Source of the DNA: an uncultured delta proteobacterium
GTDB lineage: Bacteria; Desulfobacterota; Desulfobacteria; Desulfobacterales; B30-G6
Length of the DNA: 64,000 nt
Assembly (NCBI GenBank): GCA_963823335.1
Contig: CAWGLD010000001.1
Location: 736,001 to 800,000 of the forward strand
Reading direction: 5' to 3'
Part shown: positions 3,037 to 58,704 of the stretch, piece by piece
How positions within the stretch are numbered: position 1 is the first letter of the stretch
How the letters are laid out: each line of letters starts with the position of its first letter
Notes under the pieces: model-generated
What the model was told of the DNA's origin: nothing
What the model saw: only the letters and a program-made list of their open reading frames with translations
Databases searched by the model: none
Program-made: the position numbers and the translations under genes

Positions 3037-4590
3037 TTATACGGGTATGTTCCCGTGTTTCTTGGGCGGTCTGAGTTCTCGCTTGTTGCACATGATTTCG
3101 AGTGCTTCGATCAAGCGGGGTCTTGTTTCACTGGGAACGATAACTGCATCGATAAAGCCCCTGTTGGCGGCGCGATATGGATTTGAAAAAAGCGCTTCAT
3201 AGGCCGCGATCTTCTCTTCACGCTTTGCTTTTGGATTGTCAGATTGCTGGATCTCCTTGCGATGAATGATATTGGCCGCACCGGCAGCCCCCATCACCGC
3301 AATTTCCGCCGTCGGCCAGGCAAAGGCCATGTCGGCACCTAAATCTTTGGAACACATGGCCAGGTATGACCCGCCGTAATCTTTGCGTGTCACCAGCAGC
3401 AGTTTGGGCACCGTCGCCTCTGAGTAACACCAGAGAAGCTTGGCACCGTGACGGATAATCCCTCCCCACTCCTGATGACTGCCGGGCAGGTAGCCCGGTA
3501 CATCGGCGATGGTCAGCATGGGGATATTGAAAGCATCACAGAACCGAATAAACCGCGTGGCCTTGTCCGAAGCATTGATGTCCAGGCAACCTGCCAGTTC
3601 GCGTGGCTGATTGGCGATGATCCCGATGCTTCTGTTGTTGAGCCGGGCAAAACCCACGATAATATTCTTTGCAAAATACTGGTGGGGTTCAAAAAACTCG
3701 CCCTTGTCGACGATGGAGCGGATAACCGCTTTCATGTCGTAGGACTTGCTGGGGCTGTCCGGAATAATGGTATCAAGCTCCCGGTCTTTCCGGGAAGGAT
3801 CGTCACCCATATTTACCTGAGGCGCATCCTCCATGTTGTTGGAAGGCAGATAAGACAGAAGTTTCTTGATTTCACCAATGGCATCTTCATCGCTGTCACA
3901 GGCAAACTGGGCCACGCCACTTTTTGCGTTATGGGTCATGGCACCACCCAGATCCTCGAAGGTGATTTCTTCTCCGGTCACCGACTTGATCACTTCCGGA
4001 CCGGTGATGAACATATACCCGCTGTTTTTGACCATGAAAATCCAATCCGTCATGGCAGGAGAATAGACGGCTCCGCCGGCGGTGGGCCCCATAATGGCTG
4101 AAATCTGGGGGATGACACCGGAGGCCAGGGAGTTTCGGTAAAAGATCTGGCCGTAGCCGGAAAGGGCATCCACACCCTCCTGAATCCTGGCACCGCCAGA
4201 GTCATTGAGCCCCACAAAGGGTACACCGGCTTTGAGCGCCAGGTCCATGACCTTGCAGATTTTTTTGGCGTGCATCTCTCCGAGGCTGCCGGCCCGGGCA
4301 GTAAAGTCCTGTGAAAACGCAAAAACAGGGCGCCCATCCACCAGGCCATGTCCTGTGATAACACCGTCGGAAGGTATCTCCACCTCCGGCATACCGAAAT
4401 TGACACATCGATGGGTGACGAACATGTCGATTTCACGGAATGTTCCCGGGTCAAACAACAGGTCAAGCCGTTTCCTTGCCGTCAACTTGCCCTTTTCCTG
4501 TTGCTTGGCCACAGCTTTCTGGCCGCCCATTTCCAGGATCCTTGTTTCCCGCGCCTTGAGATCCTTTATTTTATCTTCAACGGTACCCAT
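3037..4590 (-). CDS. pccB: Methylmalonyl-CoA/propionyl-CoA carboxyltransferase subunit (12S/PccB/MmdA family)
   Basis: DSGGARIQEG, GGIIRHGAK and KKHGNIP motifs; 517 aa. Confidence 0.92.
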   Translation of the reverse strand: MGTVEDKIKDLKARETRILEMGGQKAVAKQQEKGKLTARKRLDLLFDPGTFREIDMFVTHRCVNFGMPEVEIPSDGVITGHGLVDGRPVFAFSQDFTARAGSLGEMHAKKICKVMDLALKAGVPFVGLNDSGGARIQEGVDALSGYGQIFYRNSLASGVIPQISAIMGPTAGGAVYSPAMTDWIFMVKNSGYMFITGPEVIKSVTGEEITFEDLGGAMTHNAKSGVAQFACDSDEDAIGEIKKLLSYLPSNNMEDAPQVNMGDDPSRKDRELDTIIPDSPSKSYDMKAVIRSIVDKGEFFEPHQYFAKNIIVGFARLNNRSIGIIANQPRELAGCLDINASDKATRFIRFCDAFNIPMLTIADVPGYLPGSHQEWGGIIRHGAKLLWCYSEATVPKLLLVTRKDYGGSYLAMCSKDLGADMAFAWPTAEIAVMGAAGAANIIHRKEIQQSDNPKAKREEKIAAYEALFSNPYRAANRGFIDAVIVPSETRPRLIEALEIMCNKRELRPPKKHGNIPV

Positions 4591-4785
4591 ATCTTGTTCC
4601 TTTCCTTAATAAATTCGTTGCACGAATTTATATGTCGCGACCTTGTCGCTTTAATAATAGAATTTTTAAGCCCTTGAGGCGAGTTCGCAAAGCGCCAGGG
4701 GATTATTCATTTCGCGTTTGCTGATCCCAGAAAGTTGCGTAATTAAGCTCAAATACTAAATACTCTCCTGGAAAAAGTTATCATT

Positions 4786-5838
4786 CTAAACCGTTTCTTT
4801 ATTGTCAAGCGAAAAAAGCAGTTCATCCGCCGCCGCCTTGGGGGCCATTTCGCCGGCCGCCACATGACGGGTAATTTCCCCAAGACGTGATGCGATTTCA
4901 GGATGTTTATAAAATCGCGACTTGAGACCTTCTTCCACCAGGGACCACATCCAGTCCACATCCTGCCTGCGCCGTTTACGATCCAGCTCACCGCTGTTGA
5001 CAACTATTTCCCGGTGCTCCAGAACAGCGGACCAGATTGCCTTTATACCTTCATCCTCCGGGTTCAGTGAACTGCAGGTCAATGCTCTGGGTGTCCAGGC
5101 AGGTGAGGCCGGCATCAGATAATGTAAGGCGGCTTCAATCTGTTTCCTGGCCATGTTCGCTTTTTCGACATTGTCACCGTCTGCTTTGTTGATGGCAATG
5201 GCATCGGCAACTTCCAGGACGCCTTTCTTGATACCCTGAAGTTCGTCCCCGGCACCGGCTATCATCAGCAGGAGAAAAAAATCGACCATAGATGCAACGG
5301 TGGTTTCAGACTGGCCCACACCCACGGTTTCGACGATCATGACATCGTAGCCGGCAGCCTCGCAAACCAGCATGGTCTCTCTGGTTTTTCTGGCCACGCC
5401 TCCTAGGGTACCCCCTGAAGGGGAAGGACGGATAAAAGCATTTTCGGTCGTGGACAATTTTTCCATACGTGTCTTGTCTGCCAGGACACTGCCACCGCTG
5501 CGCTGACTGCTTGGATCGACAGCCAGGACCGCCACCAGATGCCCCTGGTTGACCAGACAGGTCCCCAGGGTTTCGATAAACGTGCTCTTTCCGGCACCCG
5601 GGACACCGCTGATACCAAGCCGGACGGCATTTCCTGTATATGGCAGCAAGGCATTGACCACCGCCCGGGCAAGCTGCTGATGTTCATAACGGGCACTTTC
5701 GATAAGCGTAATGGTTTTGGCCAGAATCCGCTTGTCCCTCTGTCGCACGCCCCGGGTGTAATAGGATGGGTCCTTGAGACCGCTATTATCATTGCTTTTT
5801 AGCATACTGCCGTGCTTTATCTTTCTATAAAATAACAT
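4786..5838 (-). CDS. meaB: Methylmalonyl-CoA mutase-associated GTPase MeaB (true start may be 5805)
   Basis: GVPGAGKST P-loop, VDPSS, ETVGVGQSE, NKAD; adjacent to the mutase. Confidence 0.95.
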   Translation of the reverse strand: MLFYRKIKHGSMLKSNDNSGLKDPSYYTRGVRQRDKRILAKTITLIESARYEHQQLARAVVNALLPYTGNAVRLGISGVPGAGKSTFIETLGTCLVNQGHLVAVLAVDPSSQRSGGSVLADKTRMEKLSTTENAFIRPSPSGGTLGGVARKTRETMLVCEAAGYDVMIVETVGVGQSETTVASMVDFFLLLMIAGAGDELQGIKKGVLEVADAIAINKADGDNVEKANMARKQIEAALHYLMPASPAWTPRALTCSSLNPEDEGIKAIWSAVLEHREIVVNSGELDRKRRRQDVDWMWSLVEEGLKSRFYKHPEIASRLGEITRHVAAGEMAPKAAADELLFSLDNKETV

Positions 5839-5956
5839 CCATCACGAAAACACGAAACCTTGAAAACACGAAAAATTTATAGTCTTTTTCGTGTTTTCGT
5901 CCTTTCGTGTTTTCGTGATAAAAAAATTTACTTTTTCCCTATGAATTCGGGTGATG

Positions 5957-8080
5957 TCATTTTTCAAGTACATTCAATATCTTGTTGGCCGACTCCGTTA
6001 CCACCGTTCCAGGGCCGAAAATCCCTACGGCACCGGCATCATAGAGGAAATCGTAATCACCCGGGGGTATCACACCCCCCACCACCACGCGGATGTCCTG
6101 GCCCCCTTTTTTCTTGAGCTCTGATATGAGCTGGGGCACCAGGGTCTTGTGCCCGGCCGCCAGACTGGAAACACCCACCACATGGACATCGTTTTCCACG
6201 GCCATCTTTGCCGCCTCTTGGGGTGTTTGAAACATGGGACTGATGTCCACGTCGAACCCCAGGTCGGCAAAGGCCGTGGCGATGACCTTGATACCCCTGT
6301 CATGACCATCCTGTCCCATTTTTGTCACCAGAATTCTGGGACGTCGGCCTTCCCGTTCCATGAAATCATCGGTCCGTTTCCTGACGGATGCAAAGATTTC
6401 ACTGTCACCGTACTCCGATGCATAGACCCCGGAGATACACTGGGTGGTTGCAACAAACCGGCCGAAAACAGATTCCATGGCATCGGATATTTCACCCACC
6501 GTTGCACGCGCCCGAACAGCGGAAATACAGGCTTCCAGAAGATTCCCATCTGCTTCGGCCGCACCCTTGATATGGGCAAGCGCCTGCTGGACGGCTTTGT
6601 TGTCTCTGGCGTTCTTGATCTGTTTCAGTCTTTGAATCTGCTCGTCACGAACCGACTCCGAAACCGCCAGAACTTCGTCAAGGGGCTCTTCCTCGATCCG
6701 ATGTTTGTTTACCCCCACGATAACATCCAGACCCTGATCGATGCGCGCCTGCTTGCGCGCGGCGGATTCTTCGATACGCATTTTCGGCATACCGGTCTCG
6801 ATGGCTTTGGCCATCCCTCCCAGCGCCTCCACCTCCTGGATGATTTTGCGCGCCTCTTCGATGATACCACCCGTGAGGGCTTCGATATAATAGGAACCGC
6901 CAAGGGGGTCCACCACATGACAGACCTGGGATTCTTCCTGGATGATAATCTGGGTGTTTCTTGATATTCTGGCCGAAAAATCGGTGGGTAAGCCAACCGC
7001 CTCATCAAATGAGTTGGTATGCAGGGACTGGGTGCCACCCAGCACTGCGGCCAGGGCTTCCAGTGTGGTCCGGATAATATTGTTGTAAGGGTCCTGTTCG
7101 GTCAGACTCCATCCGGATGTCTGCACGTGGGTGCGCAGCATGGATGATTTCGGGTTTTTGGGATTGAAGGTGCTGATAAGTTCGTGCCACAGAAACCGGG
7201 CCGCCCGCAGCATGGCGATCTCCATAAAAAAGTTCATACCCACCCCAAAGAAAAAGGAGAGCCGCGGTGCAAAGGTATCGATATCGAGACCGGCAGCCAG
7301 GGCGGCTTTGACATATTCCAGGCCGTCCGCCAGGGTAAAAGCCGTCTGGAGAACCGAATTGGCACCGGCTTCCATCATGTGGTAACCGCTGATACTGACC
7401 GTGTTGTACTTGGGCATGTGCTGGGAGCAATAGCCGATGATATCGGATACGATCCGCATGGAGGGCTTGGGCGGATAGATGTAGGTGTTGCGGGTCAGGT
7501 ATTCCTTTAAAATATCATTCTGGATCGTACCGGCCAGCTGTTCCTGCTTTATGCCCTGTTCTTCCGCCGCAACGATGTATCCCGCCAGGATGGGCAGGAC
7601 AGCACCGTTCATGGTCATGGACACCGTCATCTGATCCAGGGGTATCTGGTCGAAGAGGACCTTCATATCCTCGACCGAATCGATGGCCACGCCGGCCTTC
7701 CCCACATCACCCACAACCCTCGGGTGATCGGAATCGTAGCCCCGGTGGGTTGCCAGGTCAAAGGCAACGGAAAGTCCTTTTTGACCGGCAGCGATGTTCC
7801 GCCGGTAAAACGCATTGGAGTCCTTGGCCGTCGAAAACCCCGCGTATTGTCGTATGGTCCATGGCCGCCCCGCATACATGGTTGCCATGGGGCCCCGGAC
7901 ATAGGGTGCAAACCCGGGCAGGTTGTTGACATGCGCCAGGTCTTCCAGGTCCTCGGCCGTATACAGGGGCTTGACCCGAATGCCCTCCGGCGTATCCCAG
8001 TTGAGATCGTCGACTGATTTGCCCCTCAGCTGCTTGGCTGCCAGTTCTTCCCATTGTTTCATATTCGGTTTTTCCGACAT
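5957..8080 (-). CDS. scpA: Methylmalonyl-CoA mutase
   Basis: [26 protein letters not shown] and GQDGHDRG B12-binding motif. Confidence 0.97.
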
Positions 8081-43948: not shown

Positions 43949-44095
43949 TAGTGTCCGTCCAGAAATGAGGATTTTTGCGTGAGATCAAGGCGGACGACAG
44001 ATTTAACCCGGAGTAATAGCGTGCTATTTTGAGGAGTTAAATCCTGGCGCCCAACGCCGATATCGCGGAAAAAGACCATTTGTGGATGGGCACTA
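43949..44095. mobile_element. MITE, ~146 bp, overlapping the SpoIIE stop codon
   Basis: TIRs TAGTGTCCGTCCAGAAAT / ATTTGTGGATGGGCACTA. Confidence 0.8.
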
Positions 44096-46238
44096 AGTGG
44101 ATACACCCAGCACAATGATGGTCAAGTCATCATGCTGGGCCACGTTGCCTGCGAAGGCGTTGACGCTATCGACGATTTGATTGAGAAGCGATTCCGGATC
44201 CATATCGCCTGCATGCTGCATGATCTCCATCAACCGCTCGAACCCGAACATCTCTTCTTTGGCATTCATGGCCTCAACAATGCCGTCCGTGTAAAATATA
44301 ATTTTGTCCCCCGGCTGGAATTGAATATTTGTTTCCTGATAATCCGCATCGTCCAGAATTCCCAGGGGAAAGCTGTCACCTTCCGTCTCCACCAGGATGG
44401 CTTCACCGGTTTCTGCCACGTAATGGACCGGCTGGGTCTGCCCGGCACTGCACAGCGTCAGGATCTTCTTTTTGATATCCAAACTGGCAAACAGGAGGGC
44501 CACAAACATACCGCTTCGGATGTCCTTTTTCAAGCGCTTGTTGGCCTGGATCATGATGTTGCTCACTGACAGATCCTGTTCCGAGAGCATGCGGAATACA
44601 CTTCTCGAAGCCGACATCACCAGGGCGCCGGTCACGCTTTTTCCGGTGACGTCGCCGATGACCAGCCCCAGCTTGTCCTCGCCGGCTCTCGATGAAATCA
44701 AAGAAGTCGCCGCCCACTTCCCGGGCCTGCGTCGATTTGGCCGCAATCTGATATCCCTCGATTTCAGGGCACTCGCCCGGCATCATGCTCTCCTGAAGGC
44801 CGCCGGCGCTGGTGAGGTCCTCCTCCATGCGCTGCTTGACCAGAAACTCCTTGAAGAGCCAGGCGTACTTGATGCCCGTCGAACCCAGAAAGGCCAGGGG
44901 CGCCTGCAGCACCAGGGGAATGATGATGGGATACCACAGGTGAAAAAATTTGAACTGCAAAACGGAACTGATGAAATACAGAACACTCAACCCGACAACC
45001 CAGGAAGCGCTGACCAACACCGGGTACAGGCGGCAGACAATCCCCAGACCGGTTCCCCACAGGAGAATAAACACAACATAAACCCACGTGTTGATGGGCC
45101 GGACAGGTTTGTTTTCGATGATATTTGCAAATGCTGTGGCTGCGATCTCCACCCCGCTGATAAAAACACCGTTGGCCTGGGAATAGACGGTGTAGAAGCT
45201 GTCTTTTCTCTCCGCCAGCAGCACCTCGGAAAGACCCACGAACACGGCTTTGCCTGTCAGGTCGATATCGGGAGCACCCTGGCTGTCCTGGCCCAGTTGA
45301 AGGGCCCGGTGGTAGGGGATGGTGGTGATGGTGCGCGGGGGACCGTAATAGTTGATATATTGGCGGTTGTCGCCGCCGTACATTTGAATCAGCGATTGGA
45401 TCATGCCACTCTTTTTTTCATCGGACGCAAGAATGGTGGATTGCGCCAGGGCTGTCATCATTCGTTTTTCGACCTGGGGCTCGGTTTGGAAAATTCCCCT
45501 GATATTGCTGATCAGCCGCTTCACCCCATTGTTTTTCATAACGGCCCCGATATCCCCAGGCAGTTTGGGAGCCCACTCCGGGCTTGCCTTTTTAAGCAGG
45601 TCAAGAAAGGATTCATAGGCTGAAGCGGTATAAAGCTGAAACACCACCACCGGCAGGGTGGGCGAATCGCCGGCGCCGGTCTTGAAAGCCCAGTACTGGT
45701 TGACCTTGAAGGGGATTCTGGGCAGGGCAAAGGGGGCGGTTTCAACACAGGCATCGGCAAAAAGCGCCAGGGGTTTGACCCGTTTTTCAATACTGTGAAC
45801 CGCTGAAGGTTTGCCACTCTTATCGGAGAGGGGGATCTCTTTGGCGATCATGGGCTCGCAGAGGACCACGTTGCCGGCTGTGGCCAGTGCATCGGCAAAC
45901 AGGTTGTCATCCTCGGGGACCCGTGGCTCGATAAAGTGAACGTCAAAGGCCACTACCTCCGCACCGGCATCGGCCAATATCGGTGCCAAACGAGCGTGAA
46001 TGGAGCGGGGCCACTTGTCGGGGTTGTTTGGCAAGCCCAGTTCGTCCGAAGACTCCTTGTCAATGCTGACCACCACCACGTCGGGCGGGGCTTTCCGCTG
46101 ACCCCGCAGCTTGAACAGCAAGCCAAGCCCCGAATTTTCGTCGAGCCTGGAAATTGTCTGGGAAAACCCGCCCAGCAGTCCCAATATTCCGATGAGCAGA
46201 CCAAAGAGAATCGCTTTCACCAGACGGCGGGATGGCAT
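44093..46238 (-). pseudogene. CHASE2 sensor + TM helices + SpoIIE/PP2C phosphatase, frameshifted near 44688
   Basis: CHASE2 WPRS.HA, INYYGP, GVEI.A; GGDFFDF in one frame continues as IGDVTGK, YTDGIVEA, HDDLT in another. Confidence 0.85.
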
Positions 46239-46438
46239 CTACTTCCTCCGGAGCAGTCGTCGTTATCAACATCAAGTTTTATTTGCGTATGAATTAAGTA
46301 TAGAATGAAGGGTCTTTAGGTGTCAACATCCCAATGCCATTAACTTAATGATGTAGCGCAGAGCTTTAGCTCTGCTCATGCCAAGTCTTGGCATGTCTAA
46401 AGACCTGCGCTACAATATATAAACCAGTTTACTAATAC

Positions 46439-47516
46439 GGGACGTTCGTGCAGAACATTCACAACTCTAAATCGATGTCATCGATATCCGGCATTGGTCC
46501 TGCCGATATCAAGCGTGTCACACAAGAGTTGCCAACACCAAGATATCTCGCAACATCAGCACCGGAATAGCCGAGTTCTCTGACACCAATCCATGACATG
46601 GCACGCCTGGCTTGCACAACTGCCCTTCTTCGGCCTCCTGACCGAAGTTCACCAATAGAAACATTGTACTTTTCAGCCACTTTTTCGGCAAGCGCTTTCA
46701 TATCTATGCGCTGCCCGGAAAGCCTTAAGTTCTTTTTTACAAGATCATCGAGACCCGATATGACCTGTTTGACAAAATCTCCATCACCCAGTATGCGCTG
46801 GTCAGCCACCTCTTTTGCACCACGCCTGCGCATAGCGAGAACCGCAGACCAGCCGCCCATGCTCCGTATTAACCCTCCGCCCACCAATTCCGGCCTGCGG
46901 CCTTGATCAACACCTTCTTTTACGTATTGCAGATAATTCTTTCTCGAATTGCCGGATCTATTGAAAAAAGACAGCACATACTCCGTGTTCTGCCACTTCC
47001 TCTTAATTTTACCCGTAAGTGCTGAGTGACCCGACCAGGGATTTCGATTCAGCGCCTTCATATCTTTCACAAGACCCGCCCGCAAAAGATTCAGGTGAAT
47101 ATATCGAACCAGCTCCTTGAGATAAACATCCTCCTGGCAAACAATGGATTTGTAGCGGTTTTGAAATAAATGCCCGTATCTCTTATGACGCCTGTTAAAA
47201 TTTACGACATAGCCGGTAAGCAATCTGCGCATGCTATCGGCCAACGGTAAATTTTTTGTCTTACAAAGCAGATGAAAATGATTCGGCATCAACACCCAGG
47301 CATAGATTTCCATCGCTCCATCTATCGCCAGTGATGCCAGGCGGTCTATGAAATCATTGCGATCCATATCGCTATAAAATATTTTTTTTCGCTCGATGCC
47401 CCGGCCCATTACATGGTGCAACACGCCTGGCGCATCCAATCTTGCTAATCTCGGCATATTATGATATGTCCCATATTGAACATCATTCTTCAAGCACTTT
47501 CTGCACGAACGTCCCC
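46439..47516 (-). mobile_element. Element with 17-bp terminal inverted repeats encoding a Y1/HUH transposase
   Basis: GGGACGTTCGTGCAGAA at 46439-46455, inverted copy at 47499-47515. Confidence 0.85.
46459..47457 (-). CDS. Y1 (IS200/RAYT-like) HUH transposase with C-terminal HTH
   Basis: MPRLARLD, HHVMGRG, MPNHFHLL, GHLFQNRYKS, VRYIHLN; C-terminal DnaA_C-like HTH. Confidence 0.9.
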   Translation of the reverse strand: MPRLARLDAPGVLHHVMGRGIERKKIFYSDMDRNDFIDRLASLAIDGAMEIYAWVLMPNHFHLLCKTKNLPLADSMRRLLTGYVVNFNRRHKRYGHLFQNRYKSIVCQEDVYLKELVRYIHLNLLRAGLVKDMKALNRNPWSGHSALTGKIKRKWQNTEYVLSFFNRSGNSRKNYLQYVKEGVDQGRRPELVGGGLIRSMGGWSAVLAMRRRGAKEVADQRILGDGDFVKQVISGLDDLVKKNLRLSGQRIDMKALAEKVAEKYNVSIGELRSGGRRRAVVQARRAMSWIGVRELGYSGADVARYLGVGNSCVTRLISAGPMPDIDDIDLEL

Positions 47517-48611
47517 TTTTGAATCTTTGACTCTGGAAAGCAGGTGAATGTTCGGCATCAACACCCAGGCATAGATTTCCATCGCTCCATCTATAGCCAG
47601 TGATGCCAAGCGGTCTATGAAATCATTGCGATCCATATCGTTATAAAATATTTTTTTTCGCTCGATGCCCCGGCCCATTACATGGTGCAATACGCCAGGC
47701 ACATCCAATCTTGCTAATCTCGGCATAGTATGTATGTCCCATATTGAACATCATTCTTCAAGCACTTTCTGCACGAACGTCCCCTTATACTTCAATCTTG
47801 CTAATCTCGGCATATTAGGTATGTCTCATATCAAACATCATTCTTAAAGCACTTTCTGCACGAACGTCCCCTTTTACGGTGAGCAATCTGCGCATGATAG
47901 CGGCCAAAGGTAACATTTTTGTCTTGCAAAGCAGATGAAAATGATTCGGCATCAACACCCAGGCATAGATTTCCATCGCGCCTTCTATAGCCAATGATGA
48001 CAGACGGTCTATAAAATCATTGCGATCGTTATCGCTATAGAATATTTTTTTTCGCTCGATGCCCCGACCCATTACATGGTGCAACACGCCCGGCGCATCC
48101 AATCTCGCTAATCTCGGCATATTATGAGTGTCCCATATTGAGCATCAACCGTCAAGCACGTTCTGCACGAACGTCCCCTTAAACCTGACGCCAGGCGCAT
48201 CCAATCTCGCTAATCTCGGCATATCATGTAGTTCTCATTCTAAATATCGACCGTCAAGCACGTTTTGCACGAACGTCCCCTTCTTTTCCCATTACATGGT
48301 GCAACACGCCAGGCGCATCCAATCTTGCTAATCTCGGCATAGTATGGTTGTTTCATTTTGAATATCATTCGTCAAGCACGTTCTGCACGAACGTCCCCTT
48401 TTTTTCACACCGCGCCTTCTATGGCCAGTGATGCCAGGCGATCTATGAAATCACTGCGATCCATATCGCTGTAAAATATTTTTTTTGCTCGATGCCCCGG
48501 CCCATTACATGGTGCAAAACGCCTGGCGCATCCAATCTGGCTAATCTCGGCATATCATGTAGGTCTCATTCTAAATATCAACCGTCAAGCACGTTCTGCA
48601 CGAACGTCCCC
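47517..48611 (-). repeat. Tandem array of six 3'-truncated copies of the transposase element's 5' end
   Basis: Units 47517-47784, 47785-47871, 47872-48178, 48179-48280, 48281-48398, 48399-48611; each starts GGGGACGTTCGTGCA on the minus strand and includes ATGCCGAGATTAGC. Confidence 0.92.
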
Positions 48612-48702
48612 TTCTACACGTCCTCTTTTAATTATAGAATGTCCCCTTTAGTGGCATAAGGAGGTAGTAATCTCCTCTTTTATTTCGCCTCCTTTAATTT
48701 CT

Positions 48703-48744
48703 AAAAAAATACACAGGTAGGACCGGGAACGAGCCCTACCTGTG
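48703..48744 (-). terminator. Intrinsic terminator
   Basis: CACAGGTAGG...CCTACCTGTG followed by TATTTTTTT on the minus strand. Confidence 0.8.
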
Positions 48745-48754
48745 CGGCCTCCCA

Positions 48755-49378
48755 TTAATACGGCGCTGTAATTTCGCAGAATGTGTCGGGAGTTTTTTTA
48801 TACCATCCACATTCTTGTTCAGTTTCGCAATCGTATGCGGTCCCATAGTTATCAAGTGTACAAGGTCCACCTATAACGGCCGTTCTATCATTTACCTCAT
48901 TGTCATCATCCATCTCAGAGAATCCTTCTATCAGTACATACATCTCAACAACGGTAATATCTAACATCGTCCACCCTGGATTTGGAGGGTCACCAATATC
49001 AGGTCCTATGAAACTTTTAAGGTATTCTTCATCAAAACAAATTTCCATCATGTATTTCCCATTTTTTGTAATAGGATCACTTAGCGGCTCTCCCTCCAAT
49101 GTAGCTGTAACATCGACATAAAAGGGTACTCCTATTCCTCCGGGTTGACCACCAGGATTTTGATAATGTACCAGCACTTTATCAATATAAAGTGTAACGG
49201 TCACATCTGTAGGCGTTACGTCATAGTTTGCAACCTGTTTCCATTCTGTCCAAACGCATACCGAACCTGGCCAAGCACCCCATCCTCCTATTATAGCGGG
49301 GTATGCATTTGCGTTTGTCCCAAGTAGTGTTAAAAGGCTAATGCACAGTATAACCATCATCAAAAATTTTTTAAACAT
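48755..49378 (-). CDS. AT-rich secreted hypothetical protein, Cys-containing
   Basis: RBS AAGGAGG before ATG 49378; signal peptide MFKKFLMMVILC...ANA. Confidence 0.75.
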   Translation of the reverse strand: MFKKFLMMVILCISLLTLLGTNANAYPAIIGGWGAWPGSVCVWTEWKQVANYDVTPTDVTVTLYIDKVLVHYQNPGGQPGGIGVPFYVDVTATLEGEPLSDPITKNGKYMMEICFDEEYLKSFIGPDIGDPPNPGWTMLDITVVEMYVLIEGFSEMDDDNEVNDRTAVIGGPCTLDNYGTAYDCETEQECGWYKKTPDTFCEITAPY

Positions 49379-49535
49379 GGCTTCCTCCTTTTTTGTTTGA
49401 ATATTTATTACCCACATTTTAATCCACCGTAGCTTGTGGCAGGTAGCTTCAATCCTTCAATTTTTTCCTCCGGCAACTCAATCTTTACCGCTATTTGCTA
49501 TATACCTTGTATGACACTATTTGAATTTATGAGTT

Positions 49536-57414: not shown

Positions 57415-58704
57415 CTAGGTCAACTGAAATATCTCTATTTCCCTGGAGATATTTTTCAGCTCGAACATCCCCAAACTGTTCGTGTGACAACGGCCTGCCA
57501 GCCGTTCCGATGTCTGTTTCGAAACCAGGATACGGCCGCCGGTTGCCAGTTTGCCGATGCGGGCGGCTAAATTGACAGCGCCACCCCTGGCCGTGTAGGT
57601 CCATCGGGAACCGGTATAGCTGTCGAACTTGGCCGCACCCACCAGGGCCGGCCCCGAGTTGATACCCATGTTTATTTCGAGCGGCTTGTAAAGGCTGCCG
57701 ATGGTGCTGAAAATATGTTTGGTCTCCTTTTGAACCGTCAGGGCCGTCCGGGCGGCATCCAGTGCATTTTTCTTTTGATCCTCATCCAGAAACAGCACCA
57801 TCAACCCGTCACCGGCAGTTTCGTTGACATCACCTCTGTTGGCATGAATGGCGTCCATAAATACAGAGAAATGTTTTTCTATGACGGAATTCACCTCGTC
57901 ACTGCCGAGCTTCTCGCACAACCGCGTATATCCTTCGATATCCAAAAATAGAATCGAAAGATCCTGTTTTTTTTGCTCCAGGTTGTTTCCGGTGGGCGAT
58001 TGTTCTATCATCCGAGAAACCGTAACCGGCACAAATTTACTCAAATTTTCCTTAACGCTCTCAAGAATCTCAACCTTTCTCATGGCGTTTTTCAGCTTAT
58101 CAAGTGTCTTTTCGAGTTCGATGTTTTTGTCACGGAGATCCAGGTTGATCGTCCAGATTTCTTCAAATAACTTTGCATTTTTTAGGGCAACAATCAAATT
58201 GTTGATCAGGGTATCCAGCAGCTCCTGATCGTTTTCATCATACCCGTCTCCCACAAGTTTGTCGCCCAGGCCTAAAAAACCCTGCCATTGCTCCTCGATA
58301 AGGAAAACAGAAAAGTAACTTGCTTTTGGAGGAATGAGACCTTGTTTTCTTAAACGTGATGTATGTTCAATTCCCTGCACTTGTTTTTGTCTTGAAACGA
58401 TCTCTTCGATCGTCTGGGCTACAGCGGTCTTTTCGGCCTGCAAATATCCAAGCGATTCAAACCTGTCTATTTTTTTTGCCTTTTGCAACGAAAGTGCCAC
58501 AAACCCTCGCTTGCTGCCAAACGTTCCCATCGCCATCAGTAGAAAATTTCGGATGATTTTTTCCGATGCGACACAACTATAAATATCACGACTCACATCA
58601 TATAGGGTCTTCAGATGAAACACTTTCCGGTCCAGGTTTGCCTGGACAGCTTCCGACTCTTCTAAGGCGGCTTTAAGCCGCTGGATTTCTTCTCTCAGTT
58701 TCAT
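57415..58704 (-). CDS. Class III adenylate/guanylate cyclase with one GAF-like domain
   Basis: LFLDIEGYT, ETAGDGLM, VNLAARI. Confidence 0.9.
   Translation of the reverse strand: MKLREEIQRLKAALEESEAVQANLDRKVFHLKTLYDVSRDIYSCVASEKIIRNFLLMAMGTFGSKRGFVALSLQKAKKIDRFESLGYLQAEKTAVAQTIEEIVSRQKQVQGIEHTSRLRKQGLIPPKASYFSVFLIEEQWQGFLGLGDKLVGDGYDENDQELLDTLINNLIVALKNAKLFEEIWTINLDLRDKNIELEKTLDKLKNAMRKVEILESVKENLSKFVPVTVSRMIEQSPTGNNLEQKKQDLSILFLDIEGYTRLCEKLGSDEVNSVIEKHFSVFMDAIHANRGDVNETAGDGLMVLFLDEDQKKNALDAARTALTVQKETKHIFSTIGSLYKPLEINMGINSGPALVGAAKFDSYTGSRWTYTARGGAVNLAARIGKLATGGRILVSKQTSERLAGRCHTNSLGMFELKNISREIEIFQLT

Follow-up and report, generated by a model that had tools for sequence, protein, structure and literature searches.

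Described relatives and the class of the element

IS91, ISCR elements and Helitrons transpose in one-ended or end-bypass fashion: their origin end is constant, the far end varies, and downstream DNA is captured by read-through. The activity of IS200/IS605 elements is tied to the single-stranded lagging-strand template. Cleavage by these takes place at a distance from a subterminal hairpin, according to the portion of PMC8266576 covered here. The same portion reports that TnpA_REP, the Y1 enzyme of REPtrons (RAYTs), cleaves ssDNA and that any added 3'-OH oligonucleotide resolves its 5'-phosphotyrosine link in the CST assay (Corneloup et al. 2021, PMC8266576), and a nick-extend-rejoin model has been put forward for tandem BIME amplification in Fig. 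7B of Ton-Hoang et al. 2012 (PMC3333891, likewise covered in part). Finally, TIRYTs, or TIRtrons, carry terminal inverted repeats (TIRs) by definition; in the parts of PMC3733652 and PMC6006769 considered here these are described as singles, dimers or clusters, with a GGGGWSAS motif in the majority of TIRYTs (PMC3733652). A search of the open-access and bioRxiv literature found no TIRYT biochemistry or demonstrated activity.

The element analysed here lies in a window of 64,000 nt (the whole stretch of DNA that was analysed, 736-800 kb of its contig). Its gene (46459-47457, minus strand; 332 aa plus stop, with the initiator methionine chosen at 47457) encodes a protein with a Y1 HUH domain (Pfam Y1_Tnp, E=1.2e-11; 45.3 bits, cut-off 23), in which H60, F61 and H62 are invariant across 16 homologues and Y102, the putative catalytic tyrosine, is near-invariant (at least 90%). 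The C-terminus carries a helix-turn-helix (HTH) resembling domain IV of DnaA: Bac_DnaA_C is matched at E=3.3e-5 with 24.3 bits, which is under its cut-off of 31.5, and a profile of the 16 homologues matches the DnaA structures 2hcb, 1l8q and 2z4r at E of about 1e-3 over positions 244-320, DnaA domain IV being all that this profile matched among solved structures. A phmmer search of the protein against solved structures gave no match. The gene is preceded on the same strand by the left end (LE) with its 58-nt leader (47458-47516, TIR core at 47499-47516) and is closed by the right-end terminal inverted repeat (RE; 46439-46456, minus strand), 18 nt long and a perfect inverse of the LE core.

Since a Y1_Tnp gene with a DnaA-like HTH is bounded by an 18-nt TIR, the element, judged by these features, is of the known TIRYT/TIRtron type (TnpA-Y1 subclass 2.1.2). 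The original prediction had contrasted it with classical IS200/IS605 elements, which lack TIRs; it is not an odd member of that family but belongs to a described class of which, in the covered parts of PMC3733652 and PMC6006769, TIRs are a defining property. The core GGGGACGT agrees with the GGGGWSAS motif at six of its eight positions, and the GGGG start is common to all five TIRYT copies in the genome, that is, this element and four paralogues, each with a TIR of its own of 27-36 nt. The element itself is single copy, and its TIR 17-mer (up to 2 mismatches) occurs 11 times in the 4.37 Mb genome, 8 of them at this locus. TIRYTs are widespread, with more than 570 relatives matched in each of two collections. 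As in the TIRYT/TIRtron accounts considered here (PMC3733652; PMC6006769), a single Y1 HUH gene with a Bac_DnaA_C-like HTH tail is flanked by GGGG-initiated TIRs, in a genome without a REP family and with a low copy number and several unrelated paralogues, each with its own TIR.

The comparison with the other families is one of partial likeness. With IS200/IS605 (IS608, ISDra2) the element shares the Y1 HUH fold, but members of that family, which process both ends on one strand, lack TIRs, are usually multicopy and encode a transposase of about 150 aa without an HTH tail. REPtrons likewise have a related Y1 enzyme and a resident, vertically inherited gene; however, the GTAG hairpin of a REP is absent from the ends of our element, its TIR is not dispersed over the genome, and the NCBIfam model REP_Tyr_transpos scores 61.9 bits, under the equivalog cut-off of 80. 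What REPtrons amplify is a short REP/BIME that lies outside genes and has its second cleavage site defined, whereas the second end is variable here and the DNA amplified is the start of the element's own gene, or host DNA. To rolling-circle HUH elements the likeness is one of behavior (fixed origin, variable far end, flank read-through) and not of membership: IS91, ISCR and Helitrons rely on a Y2 or Rep-helicase protein and spread to new sites, whereas ours is a Y1 protein without a helicase domain and the products stay at its own LE.

Anatomy of the array

Upstream of the intact copy, the locus departs from the covered parts of the TIRYT papers (PMC3733652, PMC6006769), which describe the class but give no account of stacked LE-anchored 5' gene fragments or of read-through units; the word "truncated" is absent from PMC3733652. 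No report of such arrays was found in the open-access and bioRxiv literature, although the supplements of both papers (Additional file 5 and Figure S9 among them) may contain examples. Reading of the sequence, a repeat search and a 17-mer count all bear out the prediction of six head-to-tail units upstream of an intact TIR-bounded Y1 gene: seven copies of the LE (GGGGACGTTCGTGCAGAA) lie on the minus strand, each with the same end, at LE-to-LE spacings along the array of 213, 118, 102, 307, 87 and 268 nt (269 for the last in the repeat search, which returned a seven-copy family). The 17-mer GGGACGTTCGTGCAGAA has eight occurrences at 0-1 mismatch between 46439 and 48610, seven of them on the minus strand and one inverted at 46439-46455, and a pattern search, with a chance expectation of 0.20 over the whole window, gave a further match with 3 mismatches at 57455. 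The RE pairs with the LE copies at 100% complementarity (repeat search), and its tip holds only three G/C.

Six of the seven LEs head units made of a leader and between 7 and 81 codons, and the seventh heads the intact 332-aa gene that is closed by the inverted repeat. If a unit is taken, in a MAFFT alignment, to start at GGGG and to end one base short of the following GGGG, the outermost, unit A (48399-48611, minus strand as all the others, 213 nt), comprises LE, leader and 48 codons, with a 1-nt gap within an A-run that may be a sequencing error. It is followed by unit B (48281-48398, 118 nt, 18-19 codons), unit C (48179-48280, 102 nt, 11-12 codons, one mismatch in its LE), unit D (47872-48178, 307 nt, 81 codons), which stops short of Y102 but retains the HUH motif, unit E (47785-47871, 87 nt, 7 codons) and unit F (47517-47784, 268 nt, about 59 codons), each with LE and leader. 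The homology of unit F to the gene ends at about codon 59-70 and gives way to a divergent tail. The peptide ends read off originally coincide with these homology ends, at codons 7 (E), 11-12 (C), 18-19 (B), 48 (A), about 59-70 (F) and 81 (D). Directly before each next GGGG stands an A-rich, heteropolymeric, non-matching stretch of 5-12 nt, and the remnants proper measure 79-302 nt, as compared with 1087 nt for the element.

Farther upstream, at 48612-48648 on the minus strand, two very short, degenerate GGGGAC-type ends (GAGGACGTG..., GGGGACATTCTATAAT) had been noted. Both are present. The second represents, at this locus, a short motif in its own right, GGGGACATCCTATAAyCCCC, which occupies the same place in two congeners (G007 and G004). 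The GGGGACATCCTATAA motif gave no repeat family and was not found elsewhere in this genome. The regulatory RNAs, truncated peptides or decoy binding sites that the array might yield according to the original prediction are hypothetical; an Rfam scan returned no match at E up to 0.1, and the 8 promoter-like sites found in a scan are not above chance (5.7 expected).

Related loci and the source of the units

A search of other genomes for comparable arrays, as originally proposed, yielded LE-anchored units both in congeners and in unrelated lineages. Three congeneric genomes have the element at the same site with arrays that differ but share some units: F', a 27-nt LE stub and a full copy in G007; u1, u2 and a full copy in G004; and alpha, beta, a 12-nt stub and gamma in G001. 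Unit F has a positional counterpart in G007 (91.5% over 306 nt, both junctions spanned), unit B has one in u1 of G004 (89.1% over 129 nt, junctions spanned; bootstrap 83 for B with u1), and G001 beta and G004 u2 agree with each other in position and in junctions, again between assemblies made independently. In G001 one unit reads through: beyond LE, gene and RE, all complete, it continues for 150 nt and then 41 nt into the start of a CHASE2 gene, with 7 nt between that point and the next LE. The duplicate spans 1275 nt at 89%, two full copies stand in one array, and behind the last of them the CHASE2 gene remains intact.

The same junction, in which sequence truncated at a point x is followed by 5-12 nt and then by an LE, recurs in unrelated lineages. 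Full copies are preceded by codons 1-102 at locus L014, and by codons 1-113 at 100% identity at L018, an exact 407-nt tandem repeat of 99.75% identity; L027 holds codons 1-54, in a fragment 63% identical in protein to the adjacent copy, L110 codons 1-143 and then LE (blastn), and L012 mini-units, and in another family of the order (G031) a 29-codon fragment is followed by a copy running to the contig end. Elsewhere it is the downstream flank whose segments end just before an LE (L025, 188 nt at 99.5%; L008, 348 nt; L140, 103 nt), among them a 290-nt segment at L062 that starts 2 nt after the RE. LEs also abut unrelated upstream DNA, as with the 260-nt foreign segment before the resident copy of G007 and the truncated host fragments that precede the LEs of G004 u1 and G001 alpha. 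At L047, an upstream gene that stops after about 157 aa was set aside as an array example, as it looks like a complete short Y1 gene and not a truncated one.

These recurrences are specific to the LE. Among 73 TIRYT loci with a full ORF, flanks and TIR, six hold direct-repeat copies, seven altogether, whose ends lie no more than 25 nt upstream of the LE, as against two in total (0-1 each) in eight shifted control windows, and no repeat copy starts at the RE. Gene-internal breakpoints all fall in codons 3-143 of about 332, in this array, in the congeners and in the other lineages, and short extra C-terminal pieces occur only in L043, L083, L136, L140 and L151 among 105 loci with a full-length ORF. 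With congeners, other lineages and the 73-locus count in agreement, the LE stands as the recurrent junction point, of fixed start and variable end, that it had been proposed to be. A tblastn search of 80 metagenome-contig loci gave no 5' fragment beside a full copy, a negative of little weight given that contigs of only 1-3 kb are frequent in this set.

Identity of the units to the intact copy is 96.5% for F, 92.5% for E, 90.8% for D, 81.9% for C, 90.2% for B and 89.2% for A, unit C being closest to unit A (94.6%). The tree of the units is poorly resolved, with many nodes under 50% support, and the order of events is not recoverable from it. The differences between units are mainly synonymous, which indicates that the units come from distinct functional alleles: pN/pS between them is about 0.1-0.3, where old neutral fossils should give at least 0.5, and A and D, for instance, are separated by 11 synonymous changes but by 4 non-synonymous ones, a departure from neutrality at P=3e-5. 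The earlier contention that the units are not copies of the neighboring gene that later decayed is thereby upheld, and a purely cis model, in which the units would be snapshots of one evolving resident gene, is contradicted by the pN/pS values. On these grounds the units appear to have been copied from at least three or four functional alleles, and so many donors would imply either that the resident allele was replaced over time by recombination or that units arrived in trans from other copies or cells. As for the dispersed related copies that were originally held to be the donors, there are none in this genome; a search of 401 genomes of the order turned up no full-length copy of the A-D lineage, the best outside matches being resident copies at 90-92%, and a search with unit D found nothing nearer than these. 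The A-D lineage is marked by GAACGT in the hairpin, shared with u1 and u2 of G004, where all resident copies and the outgroups have GAAAGT or GAAATT.

How the units may have been added

We favor, with about an even chance of its being right, a model in which the units piled up as by-products of the HUH chemistry that the element, a resident and vertically inherited TIRYT, carries out at its LE. Cumulative GC skew along the contig has its minimum near 980 kb and the plus-strand skew of the window is -0.053, which makes the sense strand of the element the lagging-strand template and its gene co-directional with the fork. As lagging-strand template, the LE sense strand would be transiently single-stranded behind the fork; the Y1 enzyme would then nick it, at a site, strand and polarity suggested by the junctions, a few nt 5' of GGGG and stay tyrosine-bound to the 5' phosphate. 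A DNA 3'-OH of the same polarity at a variable distance x downstream, be it that of the nascent leading strand or of synthesis primed at the nick, could attack the phosphotyrosine and be sealed onto the LE. The product would be a head-to-tail copy with the LE as its invariable start and with a far end set by the position of the 3' end; most such copies would be short and leave 5' gene fragments, some would run through the RE into host DNA, and the innermost intact copy and the downstream gene would be left untouched. These steps match the nick-extend-rejoin model proposed for REP/BIME amplification (PMC3333891, in the part covered), a parallel that would extend to a 5'-phosphotyrosine intermediate open to any 3'-OH and to the proposed head-to-tail amplification from the cleavage site (PMC8266576, PMC3333891, within the same portions).

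The confinement of breakpoints to codons 3-143 fits extension from the LE. Several observations speak against the favored model or burden it. First, the absence of the A-D GAACGT from resident copies, together with the lack of a full-length A-D copy in the 401 genomes, necessitates extra assumptions, either allele replacement or trans donors. Second, L025, L008 and L140 duplicate only a distal flank segment and neither the element nor the DNA between, which would require extra deletion steps or a different route; a long target-site duplication was rejected as an account of these flank repeats, given that the second copy lies 0.9-2 kb from the RE in all three. Third, the L027 fragment has only 63% protein identity to the adjacent copy. 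Fourth, the LE hairpin is weak, and the tree of the units gives little resolution. If the model holds, the stacked junctions would constitute a natural readout of a TIRYT enzyme, reporting the strand and end acted on, the rough position of the cut a few nt 5' of GGGG, a covalent intermediate that would accept arbitrary 3' ends, and a capacity for duplicating downstream host DNA. It would also turn the nick-extend-rejoin model of 2012 for REP/BIME into a testable prediction on a simpler substrate, and show that tandem duplications and rearrangements beside host genes can originate locally, from the ends of TIRYTs.

Two alternatives are perceivable, both of which we consider unlikely. Serial nested insertion would place full-length newcomers into the 5' part of the resident, with the displaced 3' remainder lost by homologous recombination between the two copies or an RE-RE reaction, so that 5' stumps pile up and the latest arrival stays intact. 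This would agree with distinct functional alleles, with the innermost position of the intact copy and with an identity to it that falls roughly with distance, from F to A. It would also, however, require a second copy as donor in a genome that has a single one, and leave 3' remainders, of which there is none at this locus and for which only those five loci in 105 offer short C-terminal pieces; nor does it sit with the lack of repeat copies starting at the RE or with breakpoints confined to the first 143 codons. L027 lacks the remainder as well, at a protein identity (63%) too low for the copies to have recombined homologously, and a downstream flank duplicated with the host gene intact (G001 alpha, L062, L025) cannot be produced in this way at all.

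The other alternative, to which we would assign an equally small likelihood, is the trimming of tandem full copies, in which the downstream LE would be nicked, the DNA upstream of it resected 3'-to-5' and the gap resealed, with deletions of variable length beside the LE as the outcome. Trimming accounts for LEs that adjoin unrelated DNA (the 260-nt segment in G007 and the host fragments at G004 u1 and G001 alpha), is compatible with distinct functional donors, and its presumed precursor is seen in the coexistence of two full copies in the G001 array. Yet short resections ought to be the more frequent ones and most remnants accordingly long, whereas those observed retain at most 302 nt of the 1087; it does not itself create duplications; and the exact tandem repeat at L018 shows no sign of a former full upstream copy.

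A more doubtful reading takes the array as a chronological record of strands begun at TIRYT LEs in other cells or alleles and sealed onto the resident LE. TIRYTs would then be relaxase-like, nicking at the LE and leading a variable-length strand out of the donor, as in Hfr transfer, and the units would be kept, by conservation or gene conversion, as extra putative LE binding sites modulating the resident enzyme. This would be compatible with contemporaneous functional alleles that are found neither in this genome nor in the 401 genomes of the order, as well as with the pattern of conservation: over its first 200 nt the resident copy shows 99.5% identity in a pair of species with flanks at 76-95%, and orthologous units are 94% identical as compared with about 75% for the 200-nt bin that holds the RE and adjoining intergenic DNA.

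Transposase-independent tandem duplication, by replication slippage or unequal crossing-over at a hairpin-prone site, is the usual origin of tandem repeats in general, and the LE core of the outer units can form a 6-bp hairpin. That hairpin is weak (-6.4 kcal/mol in the outer units), folding being significant only for the outer-unit LE (z=-2.3) and no better than shuffles in the resident copy. We regard this origin as very improbable, given that the seven units here and those in more than eight unrelated lineages start at the same TIR base, that the RE has the same potential hairpin and no events, that seven events at the LE stand against 0-1 per control window, and that the first duplication would have had no repeat to slip on.

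Still less credit is due to an assembly artefact, in which strain variants of one element would have been joined into a chimera. The assembly is of metagenome type (11 contigs, 93.9% complete, 4.6% contamination), frames of neighboring genes are broken in a manner typical of indel errors, and no public sequencing run contains more than 0.22 of the sampled words. Nevertheless, every junction of x, linker and LE would need supporting reads, where strain variants would simply continue along the gene; independent assemblies contain counterparts of B, F and beta/u2 that span the junctions, with 89-92% identity; the units, being 80-96% alike, are not collapsed identical repeats; and the genome has no other copies from which a chimera could be built. 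The contigs from runs X1-X4 are short pieces of relatives that do not span the array. In X4, a few low-depth joints with a short side of 27-30 nt resemble an LE stub, 3-4 nt and an LE, and are too weak to count.

An RNA-mediated origin, in which cDNAs of truncated transcripts with A-rich tails were inserted at the LE, would suit the A-rich, heteropolymeric linkers and the fixed 5' and variable 3' ends of the units, but is barely credible, as each unit begins where the TIR terminates as DNA and not at a plausible transcription start, the neighborhood has no reverse transcriptase, and the linker in the youngest cases repeats the bases preceding the first LE (CAATA at L018; AAAGAT at L014), which implies a templated linker. 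The A-rich linkers of the original prediction are real, as described above; rather than being filler, they probably belong to the next unit as its opening 5-9 nt.

The array and its element

Sequence reading of 45800-49400 revealed seven copies of one end, GGGGACGTTCGTGCAGAA, all on the minus strand and with their 5' bases at 48611, 48398, 48280, 48178, 47871, 47784 and 47516. A repeat search placed these left-end (LE) copies in one repeat family, with spacings of 213, 118, 102, 307, 87 and about 268-269 nt, and located an 18-nt perfect inverse of the LE core at 46439-46456; a 17-mer of the end occurs 8 times at 0-1 mismatch within 2.2 kb, against 0.2 occurrences expected for the entire window. 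After each LE copy come a leader of ~58 nt and the start of one ORF, which is complete only in the innermost, resident copy (332 aa, 47457-46459). In the six truncated units, lettered A (outermost) to F (beside the resident copy), alignment loses homology to the gene after codon 7 (E), codons 11-12 (C), codons 18-19 (B), codon 48 (A), codons ~59-70 (F, with a divergent tail) and codon 81 (D), and none of the six reaches Y102. At each junction, 5-12 nt of A-rich, non-matching sequence separate the breakpoint from the next GGGG. Sequence, repeats and alignment thus bear out the original prediction of seven ends with a fixed start, variable breakpoints and A-rich linkers. Unit A carries a single-base frameshift in an A-run; such frameshifts may be sequencing errors, since neighbouring gene frames are broken both in the window assembly and in L001, the G001 locus. 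Rfam and promoter searches of the array returned, respectively, no match and nothing informative.

Pfam finds a Y1_Tnp domain in the 332-aa protein (E=1.2e-11), which also has a Bac_DnaA_C match of 24.3 bits, under the 31.5-bit threshold, and a score of 61.9 against the NCBIfam RAYT model, under its cut-off of 80. Among 16 homologues H60-F61-H62 is invariant and Y102 at least 90% conserved, and their profile finds DnaA domain IV among solved structures, with three hits at E ~1e-3. A Y1 domain joined to a DnaA-like HTH is the architecture of TnpA-Y1 subclass 2.1.2 (Quentin et al. 2018, PMC6006769), which the same paper treats as equal to TIRYT, the gene class of Di Nocera et al. 2013 (PMC3733652). 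A TIRYT is a Y1 gene between terminal inverted repeats (TIRs; the element is called a TIRtron), in most cases without dispersed repeats and in many with a GGGGWSAS motif. An HUH element with TIRs, which had been taken as unusual, is therefore covered by a described class. A full-text search found no description of LE-anchored arrays in the available text of the TIRYT/TIRtron or RAYT/REPtron literature and, relative to that text, what is new here is the stacked array. In short, the array is a real, unusual structure on a known, biochemically unexplored element class.

The element is single-copy in its genome (G000; 4.37 Mb in 11 contigs). That genome also has four distant, single-copy paralogues (35-49% protein identity) at C2:73924-74871, C4:394780-395733, C4:263372-264334 and C7:406459-406998, all without arrays and each with its own 27-36-nt TIR, in which GGGG comes after an initial 3-4 A/T bases.

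A short motif, GGGGACATCCTATAAyCCCC, borders the array on its outer side (48626-48648) and is common to three congeners: it occurs three times at L191 of G007 (4750-4835) and on the reverse strand at L192 of G004 (~4465-4490). It is not repeated elsewhere in G000, and could represent either the scar of an excision or a solo end that has decayed.

Residence and congeneric arrays

A full copy occupies the matching site in the congeneric genomes G001, G004 and G007, with its right end (RE) towards a CHASE2/SpoIIE gene, and synteny in G007 extends to the FecR/TPR gene upstream. The element is thus a long-term resident. Between species it is 91-99.5% identical per 200-nt bin, except for one bin of 75.5% in G007 that comprises the RE and adjoining intergenic DNA; for the CHASE2 gene region the range of identity is 76-99.5%.

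The arrays differ between species yet share pieces. A 269-nt unit in G007 aligns with F through both F junctions (91.5% over 306 nt), and after it come a 27-nt LE stub, 260 nt of unrelated sequence and then the full copy. In G004, unit u1 (15 codons) aligns with B through B's junctions (89.1% over 129 nt; bootstrap 83 for the pair in the unit tree), and u2 runs for 29 codons before foreign DNA; G001 has a u2-type unit, beta, again followed by foreign DNA, including a Fic gene. Orthologous units are 94% identical between species, against ~75% for the 200-nt bin of RE and adjoining intergenic DNA, a difference for which either constraint or gene conversion by the resident copy could be responsible.

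The foreign stretch within the array, ~1.4-1.5 kb after codon 25-29 of beta or u2, lies at L001 2520-3990 (with the Fic/DOC-family gene) and on the reverse strand of L192 at ~4925-6360. Downstream of the element, the CHASE2/SpoIIE gene (44093-46238, minus strand) reads as two overlapping ORFs in different frames, CHASE2-domain (44403-46238) and SpoIIE phosphatase (44093-44746), and its L001 counterpart is likewise broken into several frames; it is either a frameshifted sensor-phosphatase gene or the product of assembly indel errors. Between the RE and this gene, 46352-46414 forms an inverted repeat whose 18-nt arms are 89% complementary and separated by 27 nt, with an internal palindrome; beside it one contig of run X3 skips 46395-46433.

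Left-end junctions across the TIRYT family

The junction of a gene fragment followed by an LE recurs across the TIRYT family. A tblastn scan of 80 genome loci for 5' fragments upstream of full copies found codons 1-102 directly upstream of the full copy in L014, codons 1-54 in L027, and in L018 codons 1-116 with the window protein as query or 1-113 at 100% identity with its own protein. In L001 a fragment of 25 codons lies between the two copies, and G031, from another family of the order, has a 29-codon fragment followed by a copy that extends to the contig end. Searching with each locus's own LE (blastn) added L012, with an 84-nt unit and several mini-units starting GGGA or GGGG, and L110, where a copy cut off at codon 143 precedes an LE. 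L047 was dropped as an example because its upstream gene appears complete.

Some units read through the whole element. G001 alpha starts at an LE, spans the entire gene and the RE, and continues through 150 nt of flank to end 41 nt into the CHASE2 gene, 7 nt short of the next LE; the last copy, gamma, has the same flank with the full-length CHASE2 gene downstream, and the two segments are 89% identical over 1275 nt. Elsewhere, flank is repeated just before the LE: 188 nt of downstream host DNA in L025 (1513-1700 and 3644-3830; 99.5%), including a host gene start and ending 11 codons into that gene; 290 nt in L062 (2747-3036 and 3814-4103), again including a host gene start; 348 nt of downstream host DNA in L008 (3602-3934 and 5901-6248); and 103 nt of it in L140 (1-103 and 3366-3468). 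L062 is the only one of these four whose second copy abuts the RE, beginning 2 nt past it. In a systematic count over 73 loci with a full ORF, flanks and a detectable TIR, seven direct-repeat copies (at six loci) end at most 25 nt upstream of the LE, against 2 events in total for eight shifted control windows, and none starts at the RE. The process thus has its anchor at the LE and proceeds in the gene direction over a variable distance.

Just outside the RE, mini-repeats of its outermost 7-11 nt plus 4-6 nt mirror the very short LE stubs (L191 6475-6525, L001 2156-2190, L025 2755-2790). Dense 20-80-nt direct repeats also lie upstream of distant TIRYT genes (L146 60-290, L076 3520-3830, L072 3485-3591).

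Proposed copying from the left end

The best fit for the array is the known chemistry of a sister family, TnpA_REP. According to PMC8266576, this enzyme cleaves single-stranded DNA and keeps the 5' end on its tyrosine, a link that any added 3'-OH oligonucleotide resolves in the CST assay; Ton-Hoang et al. (PMC3333891, Fig. 7B) proposed that a nick and 3'-OH extension, followed by attack of a new 3'-OH on the first phosphotyrosine, yield an extra tandem BIME unit. By analogy, the LE would be nicked and a same-polarity 3' end standing x nt downstream would be sealed onto it, giving a head-to-tail copy from LE to x, as observed, while the inner copy and the downstream gene would stay intact. Such LE-anchored, one-ended copying is moderately supported. 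It does not, however, supply a route to L025, L008 and L140, where only distal segments of the flank stand before the LE.

Two rivals appear about equally improbable. First, nested insertion in which the 3' remainder was later lost would account for distinct alleles, but not for units that read through, for breakpoints lying only in codons 3-143, for the absence of the remainders themselves or for L027. Second, resection from a nicked LE, an unlikely origin too, would account for LE junctions whose upstream DNA is unrelated, but the remnants it predicts are long. Enzyme-independent slippage, an RNA-mediated route and an assembly artefact are contradicted, a chimera in particular being argued against by junctions common to independent assemblies and by the lack of a dispersed copy in the genome.

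Strand use may bear on one-ended copying. Along the 2.0-Mb contig C1, cumulative GC skew drops to one sharp minimum near 980 kb, where replication probably starts, and on the window's side of it the minus strand carries the leading-strand sequence; the element's sense strand is thus the lagging-strand template. IS200/IS605 enzymes act on the lagging-strand template, the same replication strand. At the RE, the corresponding strand is the leading-strand template, which would explain why events occur at the LE only, and strand use would also explain unit lengths (12 to ~1280 nt) within lagging-strand gap size.

The linkers are best read, from a few cases, as the first 5-9 nt of the next unit, since the same bases recur before different LEs. 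In L018, the youngest case (an exact 407-nt tandem repeat at 99.75% identity), CAATA occupies the 5 nt before both the first and the second LE; AAAGAT precedes both LEs of L014; and GTAAAA precedes the GGGG of one unit each in G000 (E), G007, G004 and G001. Copying would then start a few nt 5' of GGGG, with no need for untemplated filler.

As to the source of the units, the longer ones differ pairwise by pS 0.19-0.35 and pN 0.02-0.09 (Nei-Gojobori), with 11 synonymous and 4 non-synonymous changes for the A-D pair and 12 and 8 for D-G, and the non-synonymous deficits are significant (P 3e-5 to 1e-2). Neutral decay after copying from one evolving resident gene would give pN of at least half of pS; most divergence therefore dates from the time when the sources were still functional genes. 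This agrees with the earlier claim that the units are not simple duplications of the adjacent copy followed by decay. A GAACGT that completes a 6-bp hairpin is common to units A-D and G004 u1 and u2; at this position every resident copy and outgroup carries GAAAGT or GAAATT. A search of 401 genomes of the order found no full-length copy of the GAACGT lineage. The resident allele must then have undergone repeated replacement, unless some units arrived in trans. The F unit is a mosaic, its leader differing from the resident one at 1/58 sites while its coding part has a pS of 0.185; together with the 99.5% identity of the element's first 200 nt between G000 and G007, this points to replacement of the resident allele.
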